A stretch of 64,000 nt of DNA from Clostridium sp. CAG:354_28_25 (GTDB lineage: Bacteria > Bacillota > Clostridia > TANB77 > CAG-508): NCBI GenBank assembly GCA_001915925.1, contig MNRL01000019.1, positions 12,448-76,447 of the forward strand, given 5' to 3'. Position numbers and translations under genes: made by a program. This document shows positions 56,046-57,130 of this stretch, in pieces. Below the pieces are notes generated by a model. It was not told the origin of the DNA. It saw only the letters and a program-made list of their open reading frames with translations, and searched no databases. The number at the start of each line of letters is the position of its first letter. Position 1 is the stretch's first letter.

Positions 56046-56981
56046 ATGTTAGATTTTAGAACAGACCTTGCTGATGAAAGAAAAGATTTGTATAAAAAAG
56101 CAAACAATATAGAAAATGAGATTGATGGAATAGAAGCAACTGAGGAACAGATAAATAATAATATAAAAGTTACACGAGTTAAGATAATGAATGAACAAGG
56201 TGAAAGAGCATTAGGTAAAGTAAAGGGAAATTATGTAACAATAGATATGAAAAATATGAAATATATGGGAGAAGAAGAAGTCCAAAAGGCAAGTGAAATA
56301 TTATGCAAAGAATTAAAGAAAATGATAGATGAATATGTAAACAAAGAACAGGAAATATTAGTTGTAGGTTTAGGAAATATATATGTTACACCAGATGCAT
56401 TAGGTCCAAAAGTAATAAATGAGATAGATATTACGAGACATCTATTAAAATATGTACCACAATATTTAGATAAAAACACAAGACCAGTAAGTGCAATTTC
56501 GCCAGGTGTTTTAGGAACAACAGGAATGGAAACAGCAGAGATTTTAAAAGGAATAGTAGATAATGTAAAGCCTAAACTAGTTATAGTTATAGATAGTTTG
56601 GCTTCTAGAAGCATGGAAAGAATAAGCAGTACAATTCAATTAGCAGATACAGGAATTGTTCCAGGTGCAGGAGTAGACAATGCTAGGAAAGAGTTAACAG
56701 TAAATACATTAGGAGTTCCAGTAATTGCACTAGGAATACCAACAGTTGTAGAGACAGCAGTTGTGGTAAATGATTGCTTAGATGTTTTTATAGAAAAATT
56801 ACAAGAAAAAGCAGAATCTAATGAATATTTAAATAAACTAAAAGAAGAGGATAATTATCTGGAGATAAAAGAAGCATTAATACCGAAAAATTTTAATTTT
56901 ATAGTAACACCAAAGGAAATAGATTCTTTAGTAGAAAATATGAAAGATGTAGTTGCACGAGGTATTAATATGAGCTTATAG
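56046..56981 (+). CDS. gpr: Germination protease (spore SASP endopeptidase)
   Basis: TDLADE, VVGLGN..VTPDALGP, RPVSAISPGV, IDSLASRS, TLGVPVIALGIPTVV, VTPKEID blocks matching GPR. Confidence 0.85.
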   Translation: MLDFRTDLADERKDLYKKANNIENEIDGIEATEEQINNNIKVTRVKIMNEQGERALGKVKGNYVTIDMKNMKYMGEEEVQKASEILCKELKKMIDEYVNKEQEILVVGLGNIYVTPDALGPKVINEIDITRHLLKYVPQYLDKNTRPVSAISPGVLGTTGMETAEILKGIVDNVKPKLVIVIDSLASRSMERISSTIQLADTGIVPGAGVDNARKELTVNTLGVPVIALGIPTVVETAVVVNDCLDVFIEKLQEKAESNEYLNKLKEEDNYLEIKEALIPKNFNFIVTPKEIDSLVENMKDVVARGINMSL

Positions 56982-56990
56982 AGAGAAAGA

Positions 56991-57130
56991 TAGGGACGTT
57001 CGGGATTTGGGGACGTTCTTTTTTTTCCTATTTTTGTTTTATGGACAAGAAAAAATTGGCTAAATTGCCAATTTGCTATAAAAATCCCTATTGCAAATAG
57101 GGATTTTTAGGAACGTCCCTAGATCCCGAT
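56991..57130. repeat. Composite roughly 140-bp element of the repeat family with imperfect terminal inverted repeats (CGGGATTTGGGGACGTTC ... GAACGTCCCTAGATCCCG), internal palindromes AAAAATCCCTATTGCAAATAGGGATTTTT and ATTGGCTAAATTGCCAAT
   Basis: Direct reading; encodes the last 13 codons and TAG stop of the minus-strand gene 57088..57936. Confidence 0.7.

Follow-up and report, generated by a model that had tools for sequence, protein, structure and literature searches.

The gap between gpr and ytxC, the convergent gene for a sporulation protein, in Clostridium sp. CAG:354_28_25 is bounded by two inverted repeat arms, one of which runs into the ytxC reading frame and supplies its end. Such a layout raises the question of whether the gap holds one mobile element, inserted as a block into the 3' end of ytxC, or an assembly of smaller repeats. 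The window analyzed is a 64-kb stretch of contig MNRL01000019.1 (64,000 nucleotides, to which all coordinates refer), and related loci fetched for comparison are designated by L-numbers. The junction is made up of the following parts.

56046..56981, plus strand: gpr (germination protease) CDS, the left neighbour, with its TAG stop at 56979-56981; Pfam Peptidase_A25, E = 1.8e-87
56991..57001, plus strand: partial unit that lacks an arm, TA plus the GGGACGTTC core; opens a tandem pair and has the same sense as gpr
57000..57030, plus strand: left repeat unit, T-type, TCGGGATTTGGGGACGTTC + TTTTTTTTCCTA; sense to gpr; PWM score 40.2 bits
57031..57078, no strand: locus-specific spacer with a small hairpin, matched only by the orthologous locus (L086, L010-L013)
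57079..57109, no strand: perfect palindrome AAAAATCCCTATTGCAAATAGGGATTTTT, 14-bp stem and 3-nt loop, flanked by A/T runs (repeat search and folding)
57099..57129, minus strand: right repeat unit TCGGGATCTAGGGACGTTCCTAAAAATCCCT of A-type; same sense as ytxC; PWM score 31.5 bits
57088..57936, minus strand: ytxC CDS, 282 aa, GTG start at 57936 and TAG stop at 57088-57090 (ORF list)
57088..57129, minus strand: last 13 codons of ytxC (SGSRDVPKNPYLQ) and TAG stop (sequence, end of the Pfam domain and orthologue comparison)

The earlier note had read this gap as a MITE-like copy of roughly 140 bp. The features it described (arms, T-run, palindrome, small hairpin and ORF) are all found in the sequence; the left arm exists as well, although its coordinates are 57001-57018 and not 56999-57016, a shift of 2 nt. 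This arm comprises GGGACGTTC at 56993-57001 and CGGGATTTGGGGACGTTC at 57001-57018, with a T-run at 57019-57026, while the right arm is the inverted GAACGTCCCTAGATCCCG at 57111-57128 and matches the left at 16 of 18 positions. A repeat search delimits the arms as 19-nt segments (57000-57018 and 57111-57129) that are 89% complementary and 92 nt apart, and finds the 11 nt of the partial unit to be 100% complementary to 57111-57121. The two units differ in a variable 4-nt segment, TTTG on the left vs. TCTA on the right. The left unit carries a T-rich 3' arm in place of TTAAATCCC, and this T-type arm (CCTTTTTTCCC) is seen again in many further copies. The spacer hairpin, AAATTGGC-TAAATT-GCCAATTT, spans 57053-57074 (small ATTGGC/GCCAAT hairpin at about 57055-57072); on the minus strand a T-run comes after it. 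The right arm of the palindrome at 57079-57109 doubles as the 3' arm of the right-hand unit, a three-arm layout that recurs at window positions 25-80 and in L068.

What is repeated is a 27-nt hairpin, GGGATTTG-GGGACGTTCC-TTAAATCCC, which has sharp edges and random flanks (consensus of 182 unique copies) and is most conserved in its 10-nt apex, GGGGACGTTC, rather than at the stem foot. Its 9-nt core, GGGACGTTC, occurs 11 times in the window (0.01 expected) and the 18-mer arm, at three or fewer mismatches, 10 times (0 expected). The unit PWM recovers 9 full copies in the window at 26-56 bits, and five shuffles contain no position at 5 bits; the window also has 5 partial units, and the unit is dispersed over about ten loci per 64 kb in the uncultured CAG:354-like Clostridium lineage. 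More than 107 stretches were matched in a scan of the collection, all of them from at least 20 uncultured Clostridium/Clostridia gut MAGs, and 174 of 186 unit copies lie outside long ORFs. Across the whole window the Rfam gathering scan returned a single match, to 6S RNA, and nothing for the repeat; a permissive Rfam scan of 56900-57200 gave only sub-threshold matches at chance level, and a full-text literature search for the core gave only unrelated primer-type matches. Readings as a DNA uptake sequence, a CRISPR or a CsrA site were dropped by reasoning, the copies being intergenic, hairpin-bounded, Y1-linked and not arrayed.

Several features would fit a classical composite MITE, that is, an IS-derived, Correia-like element with terminal inverted repeats and TA duplication that entered ytxC at its 3' end in one event, as a block of 140 bp. 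Besides the matching arms, TA often borders the unit on either side (of the 182 copies, 85 have T at -10 and 84 have A at -9, and about 100 have TA at +19/+20), related species (L042, L051, L063, L073 and L114) have composites that form long, perfect palindromes (110-125 bp) and whose outer segments match, and L031 has a composite with an interior of roughly 200 bp. The interior of the window copy argues against such an element: in about 1 Mb of related DNA, 57031-57078 matches the orthologous locus only, so that the block is not the copy of a repeated composite that the earlier note took it for. In L007-L009, which are 97% identical, unrelated sequence stands in place of this 48-nt spacer, and in L086 its hairpin loop is inverted. 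Furthermore, the left and right halves evolve independently. The right unit has the same sequence in L007-L009 and is conserved in L010-L013 and L086, and the right half as a whole is stable; on the left, core number varies or the half has decayed in sister species, and the partial unit is kept in L007-L009 and missing from L086. The consensus is bounded as a 27-nt unit and not as a larger element, and the transposase genes found between facing units are exclusively RAYT-like Y1 genes of REP type, not of the kind found in IS elements that are parents of MITEs. In the one filled/empty comparison, the units at window 25271-25335 are missing from L120 and L115, which show TAAAAAATG with no clean TA duplication. 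Neither this site nor the flanks of the unit consensus demonstrate a target-site duplication, and the flanking TA does not indicate one, being itself palindromic and an extension of the hairpin. A block-wise MITE insertion is thus very improbable.

Variation among genomes is also seen at window 52759-52805, where tandem copy number differs between those compared. At 27268, 43631 and 45027 no right-hand anchors for orthologous alignment could be placed, owing to differences in the neighbouring DNA (gene replacement after 27609; 3-kb indel at 43773-46727).

In the fetched loci 111 elements are single and 16 are tandem, the remainder being composite. Adjacent cores are arranged directly in 66 pairs, head-to-head in 20 and tail-to-tail in 1; facing pairs are spaced 9-93 nt apart and lie between co-directional (9), convergent (4) or divergent (2) genes. 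The 20:1 excess of head-to-head over tail-to-tail pairs, together with the 9 between co-directional genes, indicates that pairing belongs to the family itself, and a pair with inverted termini is therefore a fair reading of this gap. The same arms could instead stem from single units that inserted behind gpr and behind ytxC in two unrelated events, with the look of terminal inverted repeats arising from gene convergence, as each unit is sense to its own gene. Single units are indeed the commonest form, and of the 31 cores located in convergent gaps 30 share the sense of the gene closer to them, a pattern that is partly automatic because most of those cores are in head-to-head pairs. The differing 4-nt segments, the combination of a T-type left with an A-type right unit, and the loci with fewer units (L005 has the ytxC-side unit alone, L003 one unit only) would also suit separate insertions. 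The family-wide excess of head-to-head pairs speaks against them, as do the head-to-head pair at the ytxC–gpr site of the distant L133 lineage and the RAYT genes that are flanked in the same head-in fashion. We regard two independent insertions as unlikely, if by no means far-fetched. The gpr–ytxC region is probably a head-to-head pair of REP-type hairpins with an extra partial unit, which resembles a REPIN or BIME; units of this family are RAYT-linked in congeners.

The window contains no Y1 transposase (tblastn), and the link between units and RAYT therefore rests on congeners. In four congeneric species (L064, L123, L126 and L129) a single Y1 transposase gene is flanked head-in by units, and in three of the four a small ORF follows the transposase inside the flanked cassette. 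The flanking cores are of the GTTC variant in L123, GTAC in L126 and GGTC in L129. The L064 gene (273-1055) encodes a match to Pfam Y1_Tnp (40 bits vs. a cutoff of 23), and among NCBIfam models it scores highest with REP_Tyr_transpos (66.7 bits, under the equivalog cutoff of 80), compared with 17.4 for the IS200 model. The protein is about 260 aa long, with an extra C-terminal helix-turn-helix-like region. A phmmer search of the PDB gave no match, and a profile search of the PDB gave 4ER8 (E. coli TnpA-REP) as the best match. 4ER8_A is also the top Foldseek match of the AF2 model (pLDDT 82; E = 2.4e-7, TM 0.74, rmsd 3.1), with IS200/IS605 TnpA chains at about 1e-4. The HUH and Y-I-H-x-N-P-V motifs are invariant in 30 homologues, and the homologues in the three species other than that of L064 share the synteny holB-PSP1-ferredoxin-[Y1]-POR. 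A second Y1 paralogue in L101, 30% identical, has flanking hairpins with different stems and the same kind of GGGACGTAC apex. Based on model, profile and fold matches for the assignment to the RAYT clade, the unit family and the Y1 gene likely constitute a REP/REPIN-RAYT-type system, in which the RAYT-like enzyme would spread and maintain the units via recognition of single-strand hairpins.

Among known systems, REP/BIME repeats and the RAYT of E. coli and other Proteobacteria (4ER8; PMC2817692, PMC3479197) share with the units a short, imperfect palindrome of 27-31 nt present in high copy outside genes, clusters that alternate or run in tandem with variable spacers, and one Y1 HUH gene between inverted units, the downstream unit lying directly past its stop; the best fold match of the Clostridium transposase belongs to this system. 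The units differ in their host, a Clostridium-like Firmicute, in having no conserved terminal GTAG tag, in the position of their most conserved part (apex), and in the frequent overlap with stop codons. The transposase stands apart through its length, its additional C-terminal region and the small ORF that follows it in three of the four species. Like the REPINs of Pseudomonas fluorescens (PMC3116915, PMC3337134), they include inverted head-to-head doublets that form a long hairpin with their spacer and singlets that can be read as remnants, and the associated RAYT may, as there, be single-copy and vertically inherited. Unlike REPINs, in which doublets dominate and share spacing and spacer, the family is dominated by singlets and direct tandems (111 singles vs. 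about 20 head-to-head pairs) and its spacers are heterogeneous; the spacer of the window pair is unique to the locus, and the pair is therefore not a homogeneous replicating doublet. In the GTAG/CGTC superfamilies of stem-loop REPs (PMC3733652), as here, head-to-head dimers predominate, tail-to-tail dimers are rare and copies are occasionally intragenic. Those REPs carry an unpaired terminal GTAG or CGTC tag, whereas neither tag ends the unit: CGTC is confined to the apex, where it is read on the antisense strand, and consensus positions -11 to -8 are N-T(47%)-A(46%)-G, position -11 having no conserved G. The survey of these superfamilies (Di Nocera et al. 2013) reports no Firmicutes, and RAYT genes can be flanked by repeats unrelated to GTAG REPs (PMC3733652). 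Our literature search found no paper linking REPIN/RAYT-type systems to Firmicutes.

At the ytxC end of the pair, the minus-strand ORF (57088-57936) closes with IELISGSRDVPKNPYLQ and its stop. The Pfam YtxC match extends to residue 267 of the 282, the point at which the unit begins; S-G-S-R-D-V-P-K-N-P is encoded by the unit, and Y-L-Q and the stop by the 14-bp palindrome (its loop and left arm). Orthologues in the database start at the ATG corresponding to 57918 (276 aa) and end either in IEFAK(C) or in differently joined unit-derived tails: L001 ends in AKC and L003 in AK, the latter with a TAG-GGATTT unit, while L005, L132 and L133 have GGTC-type tails (..DGP..). In more distant Clostridia an unrelated, Cys-rich tail (CxxCxxC) is found. 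The C-termini diverge exactly at the repeat boundary, and in no orthologue does unrelated DNA encode this tail; the ORF and the orthologue comparison thus bear out the proposal that the right-hand repeat provides the last 13 codons and the stop. The insertion into a resident gene suggested along with it is not recent, as a unit is present at the ytxC stop in most lineages examined within the genus, the stop codon having shifted in and out of the unit. Tail identity is lower than that of the core (0.83 vs. 0.90). Judged from these alignments, the predicted 13-residue tail is repeat-derived and apparently weakly constrained, and the arrangement of ytxC and unit is old and vertically inherited. 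Early in the genus, a unit would have sat at the ytxC stop codon. In the window lineage the stop is no longer at the unit edge, where TCG stands in the position of the L003 TAG, and the unit also lacks the usual in-frame CCT-TAA; translation would therefore continue through the unit (GGA-TCT-AGG-GAC-GTT-CCT) and stop in the palindrome, and this read-through would add the predicted tail to YtxC.

Rickettsia RPEs and Neisseria Correia elements are likewise small palindromic repeats, which can join a coding sequence or change the end of a gene. RPEs go into genes in-frame, and Correia elements are units of 100-155 bp, bounded by terminal inverted repeats, that move whole with TA duplication. Compared by description, the units differ from both in affecting gene 3' ends only, in their 27-nt length and in having no apparent sequence similarity to them (PMC3733652, PMC2229807).

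The association with gene ends extends across the family. The stop codon of a sense-strand ORF lies inside 27 of 165 units (~16%), and ORF ends within 50 nt of units are in the sense orientation in 94 cases vs. 21 antisense. As RNA, the sense strand of the unit forms a 14-bp hairpin of -18.8 kcal/mol (antisense, -13.0), strengthened by conserved G-U pairs, and the whole gpr–ytxC region folds far more stably than shuffles (z = -8.6 and -7.2). A terminator consensus scan flags a single feature, on the minus strand, namely the small hairpin spanning 57053-57074; the palindrome at 57079-57109, whose A5/T5 runs form part of its stem, is a putative bidirectional terminator or 3'-end hairpin. Covariation speaks neither for nor against an RNA role because the unit family is too uniform, with almost no compensatory base-pair variation.

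The clustering of sense units just past stop codons and the folding data would also be expected if the units were non-mobile, namely RNA 3'-end or terminator hairpins, or protein-binding sites in RNA or DNA, that are kept similar by selection and overlap ytxC incidentally; one such hairpin stands alone between both stop codons in L003 and L014. As terminators, however, the units lack a U-tract, and they match no Rfam family. Units from unrelated loci are nearly identical, sharp-edged and randomly flanked, their presence differs between genomes that are 93% identical, and tandem half-units are unable to fold. The specific tie to Y1 transposase genes, with core variants that differ among the species examined, further counts against purely non-mobile hairpins, and host function and mobility can coexist. 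We consider this explanation improbable. Within a REP-RAYT-type family, the sense bias toward the nearer gene fits an RNA-level role and may reflect one at 3' ends, or instead replication direction. Transcribed units would act as 3'-end or intercistronic hairpins, and at this junction the units and the central palindrome would form a shared 3'-end structure of gpr and ytxC.

The apparent MITE is, on this evidence, probably a locus-specific assembly of small units and not one mobile block. We tentatively put forward a broader reading, of appreciable but not prevailing likelihood: Firmicutes could here have their first characterised REP-RAYT system of high copy number, in an uncultured Clostridium genus from human and animal guts, with the apex GGGACGTNC as a recognition element common to stem types that each have their own RAYT paralogue, and with units co-opted as gene ends that replaced an ancestral Cys-rich YtxC tail, their sense bias following the nearer gene. 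The naturally occurring combinations of transposase and hairpin variant (GTTC, GTAC and GGTC apexes; two stem types) lend themselves to tests of RAYT recognition. If the reading is true, about one in six units would provide the upstream protein with its stop codon and as many as 13 of its C-terminal residues. Unit-derived tails offer an explanation for odd C-terminal extensions (..G-F/S-G/R-D-V/G-P..) in protein annotations of gut MAGs. The family suggests that REP-RAYT systems, which have been studied almost only in Proteobacteria, may also shape the intergenic regions and gene ends of gut Clostridia.

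Between the convergent genes gpr and ytxC, in a window of 28% G+C, an earlier note had described a composite MITE-like element of about 140 bp that supplies the C-terminus and stop codon of ytxC. All of the features claimed there were located in the sequence; the left arm is present, but lies 2 nt from where it had been placed.

56046-56981, + strand: gpr (Pfam Peptidase_A25)
56993-57001: GGGACGTTC, gpr-side core
57001-57018: CGGGATTTGGGGACGTTC, left arm
57019-57026: T-run directly after the left arm
about 57055-57072: small hairpin, ATTGGC...GCCAAT
57079-57109: perfect 14-bp palindrome
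57111-57128: inverted GAACGTCCCTAGATCCCG, right arm
57088-57936, - strand: ytxC (Pfam YtxC), convergent with gpr

The gap between the genes is 106 nt. The ORF of ytxC continues through the right arm to its end, SGSRDVPKNPYLQ-TAG, so that the right-hand repeat does encode the tail and lead to the stop. The arm features are not due to chance, since the core 9-mer occurs 11 times in the window (0.01 expected) and the arm 18-mer 10 times (0 expected). The folding energy of the gap is -69 kcal/mol on one strand and -54 kcal/mol on the other (z = -8.6 and -7.2). A simple terminator scan flagged only the smaller hairpin, on the minus strand; the central palindrome, which has A/T runs, resembles a bidirectional terminator. 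No Rfam family was found in the gpr-ytxC region, and the sole family in the window at the Rfam gathering score is 6S RNA (33851-34044; RF00013, 102.7 bits). The loop of the small hairpin (57061-57066) is exactly inverted relative to the related locus L086 (AATTTA/TAAATT) with the stem unchanged, as is a second loop at window position ~57-61 relative to locus L110 (TTTTA/TAAAA); these inverted loops between sister species are hairpin-mediated micro-inversions.

Every core copy in the window lies in the context (TA)GGGATTTG-GGGACGTTCC-TTAAATCCC(TAT), a hairpin unit. A search for GGGACGTTCYTWAAATCCC with one genome per species returned at least 107 stretches from at least 20 assemblies, all of which, among the matches listed, are uncultured "Clostridium sp." or "Clostridia bacterium" gut MAGs. 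When 182 non-identical copies were aligned on the core to build a consensus, high information was confined to positions -8 to +18; outside them the composition was background, with a weak TA signal on both flanks. This gives the repeated entity a length of 27 nt. These data establish the repeat family, its boundaries and its distribution. The window holds nine full units (26-56 bits with the position weight matrix; no position in shuffled sequence reached 5 bits) and five partial units (core alone or core plus 5' arm), each in tandem with a full unit. The 3' arm occurs as two types, TTAAATCCC, found in the ytxC-side (right) unit, and the T-rich TTTTTTCCC, found in the gpr-side (left) unit. The sense RNA of the unit folds into a 14-bp hairpin of -18.8 kcal/mol, and the antisense RNA has -13.0 kcal/mol.

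The 140-bp block itself is not repeated, contrary to the earlier reading. The orthologous locus (L086, L010-L013) is the only match to its interior (57031-57078); neither the rest of the window nor ~1 Mb of related DNA gave another, and only stretches of 17-35 nt, i.e., the units, recur. In L007-L009 (97% nucleotide identity) both flanking units are the same as in the window and the interior is unrelated, while in L010-L013 (93%) the interior is similar and the gpr-side unit decayed; L086 (94%) has a single gpr-side core where the window has two, and an inverted interior hairpin loop. The confinement of the interior to the orthologous locus, together with the comparison of filled and empty sites, sets the block apart from a classical MITE.

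The clearest filled/empty site is at 25271-25335, where a partial and a full unit of the minor GGGACGGTC variant lie between two genes. This double unit is absent from the orthologous site in loci L120 and L115, where TAAAAAATG separates the upstream stop from the downstream start; the insert brings a new Shine-Dalgarno-like GAAGGG, and the upstream gene ends with TAG in the window and TAA in L120 and L115. At 52759-52805, a partial and a full unit are present in the window and in L007, a single unit in L086, L010 and L052, and none in L014. Such differences provide evidence, from comparison of sequences, that the units are, or recently were, mobile. Over the 17 kb common to the window and the 93%-identical L010, every unit site is occupied in both, and turnover is therefore slow. 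A segment of ~3 kb (43773-46727) with four ORFs and a unit at 45027-45057 is replaced by ~135 nt in L082 (93-95% identical); its left junction lies ~110 nt beyond the unit at 43631-43661.

The neighboring genes ruvC (52236-52290, 5' end) and holA (52812-52870, 5' end) each require a +1 shift near the start, in both cases at CGG, a codon used 8 times among the 18,824 codons of the window ORFs. The ruvC frame reads ...GCA ATA ACA CGG GTA TAG, with the true frame from GGG TAT AGC, and holA reads ...GAA CTT CGG ACA AGG ... TAG, with the true frame from GGA CAA GGA. The extra base is kept in L007, L052, L086 and L010 (93-97% identity), while in L014, which is without it, the genes are intact (163 and 340 aa). 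Either programmed +1 frameshifting at a rare codon or a pair of conserved pseudogenes could explain the shifts.

The Pfam YtxC match stops at residue 267 of 282, where conserved sequence ends in ...IFENRIEL. The C-termini of ~60 orthologues, which the earlier note had proposed comparing with the element boundary, diverge exactly there, after ...IFENRIE(L/F), and no orthologue was found with the 13 residues encoded by unrelated DNA. The window clade has (I/L/T/A)SGSRDVPKNPY(LQ/FK), while other lineages have ATGLGDVPKNPSF, AQSGLDDGPNFPTI, SNSGLEDGPKIPF, SKQGFGDGPKIPL, SKEIIPGFRDGP or RDGP; two groups have AK or AKC and then a stop, one has K and a stop, and more distant Clostridia have an unrelated Cys-x2-Cys-x2-Cys. 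The latter proteins (P0054-P0069) share a conserved C-x2-C-x2-C...Y-K/R end that is absent throughout the genus studied, in which YtxC ends at or within the repeat unit.

Every tail is read in a single frame of the unit, GGA-TYT-RGG-GAC-GKT-CCT, with D-V-P tails corresponding to the GTTC core variant and D-G-P tails to the GGTC variant. Among related loci, L001 (AKC*) has an unrelated hairpin and no unit; L003 (AK*) has one unit, whose flanking TA and first G make the ytxC stop and whose opposite strand forms the gpr stop; and L014 has a coreless hairpin with the unit's arms that also forms TAG. A decayed unit lies within the ytxC tail of L005, where the gpr-side unit is absent. In L132 the native GAATTT is joined straight to the core and the stop is the unit's CCT-TAA, while L133 has a unit-derived tail to CCT-TAA, with a decayed facing unit adjoining gpr. 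Tail-bearing and tail-less YtxC forms are interleaved in a neighbor-joining tree. These comparisons show a repeat origin for the YtxC tail, and the arrangement itself is old. On the simplest reading, a unit would have occupied the ytxC stop from early in the history of the genus, with point changes and small indels placing the stop now inside, now outside the unit. The window lineage has TCG as its unit-edge codon (TAG in L003) and a 3' arm, CCTAAAAATCCC, with no in-frame TAA, so translation proceeds to a TAG within the central palindrome. Variation is greater in the tail than in the remainder of YtxC (mean pairwise identity 0.83 vs. 0.90; variable columns 9/14 vs. 116/262), which speaks against a strong constraint at the protein level.

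Units of this family habitually overlap gene ends. The stop codon of a sense-strand ORF (≥80 codons) falls inside 27 of 165 non-identical units: TAG at -10 (TAG-GGA) in 7, at -4 to -2 in 10, TAA at +11 with the tail G-F-G-D-V-P in 9, and at +19 in 1. Within 50 nt of a unit there are 94 sense and 21 antisense ORF ends. Where genes converge, 30 of the 31 cores in the gaps have the sense orientation of whichever gene is closer, a pattern that is automatic for head-to-head pairs. All of these counts include orthologous sites in different species and are thus not independent events. Window genes ending at 25271, 27270 and 30350 have a TAG stop formed at the unit edge. The 63 longest window ORFs stop with TAA (42), TAG (19) or, very rarely, TGA (2), and the TAG share may be raised by unit edges (TA+GGG), which create such stops.

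Element architectures were counted in ~850 kb of fetched loci, for which gene maps are crude longest-ORF calls and copies from orthologous sites inflate some counts: 111 single units, 16 direct tandems, 8 units followed by a second core type (GGGACACTC), 8 facing pairs and 4 full nested palindromes (1+2+2-1-). Adjacent cores within 150 nt were direct in 66 cases, head-to-head in 20 and tail-to-tail in 1. Since head-to-head pairs lie between co-directional (9), convergent (4) and divergent (2) genes, facing pairs belong to the family itself and do not merely result from convergence. The variable 4-nt segment of the outer arm in long palindromes is identical at both ends of a copy and different among copies. 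At 28439-28469, two convergent window genes are separated by a hairpin with the second core type (GGGGACACTC...GAATGTCCC), its core being that of the inner hairpin in the long nested palindromes of related species. Related genomes also carry further types of palindromic repeat: at sites orthologous to window 43631, L024 (~3190-3350) has an inverted pair with ~45-nt arms and L074 (~3180-3330) a TGTGACAAAAGGGTCGTCCCTTTTTGTCACA pair.

Screening of ORFs located between facing units identified a 261-aa protein in locus L064 (273-1055), with a sense unit ~160 nt upstream and an inverted unit 15 nt past the stop. It matches Pfam Y1_Tnp (40 bits, cutoff 23), and its best NCBIfam model is "REP-associated tyrosine transposase" (RAYT) at 66.7 bits, below the equivalog cutoff of 80; the IS200 model gives only 17. 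H-x-H and the Y-I-H-x-N-P-V motif are invariant in thirty homologues, whose profile has as its best PDB match 4ER8, E. coli TnpA-REP bound to a REP hairpin. The AlphaFold model (mean pLDDT 82) also has 4ER8_A as top Foldseek match (E = 2.4e-7, TM 0.74, rmsd 3.1 Å), followed by IS608, ISDra2 and IS200 transposases at ~1e-4. The protein thus likely belongs to the RAYT clade.

Homologues in three other species (53-60% identity) share a neighborhood, holB-PSP1-ferredoxin-[Y1 gene, small ORF]-2-oxoacid:ferredoxin oxidoreductase. In all three the gene or cassette is flanked head-in by units, with a different core variant in each: GGGACGTTC in L123, GGGACGTAC at both outer ends in L126 and GGGACGGTC in mirrored tandem doublets in L129. 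The Y1 gene is absent from the 64-kb window; its head-in association with units is established in congeners. The small ORF downstream of the RAYT-like gene (104-108 aa, conserved; L123 6855-7181, L126 6963-7277, L064 from 1125) has only weak, sub-threshold winged-helix matches in Pfam, and in L123 and L126 is located inside the outer flanking unit. A second Y1 paralogue (30% identity) lies between queA and tgt in L101 (843-1686), with inverted flanking hairpins of different stems (TGTGCCAAAA/TTTTGGCACA) and the apex GGGACGTAC; the apex is thus the part common to repeat types. This queA-tgt transposase is bounded by GTGTGCCAAAAGGGACGTACCTTTTTGGCACA hairpins.

A unit-flanked Y1 gene is the same arrangement as the REP-RAYT system ("REPtron") of Proteobacteria (PMC2817692, PMC3116915), and the units share with REP/BIME/REPIN-RAYT systems a short palindrome, high copy number and inverted flanking of the Y1 gene. 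Classified REP superfamilies (PMC3733652) have a terminal GTAG or CGTC tag, and the units have neither; doublets, dominant among Pseudomonas REPINs, are not so here. Neither the REP survey nor the first RAYT paper mentions Firmicutes or Clostridia. One paper reports "Group 1" RAYTs in Clostridia too, and ties the group to low-abundance flanking 16-mers only; no paper in the literature searched treats REPINs, RAYTs and Firmicutes together. The unit system is distinguished by its conserved apex, by the greater length of its transposase, which has an HTH-like C-terminus, and by how often units capture stop codons. By analogy with known Y1 HUH enzymes and RAYTs, the enzyme would recognize the unit hairpin on single-stranded DNA and copy or maintain the units. 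Their position, orientation and folding suggest that transcribed units would form stable hairpins, which would protect or define 3' ends, like the REPs of E. coli.
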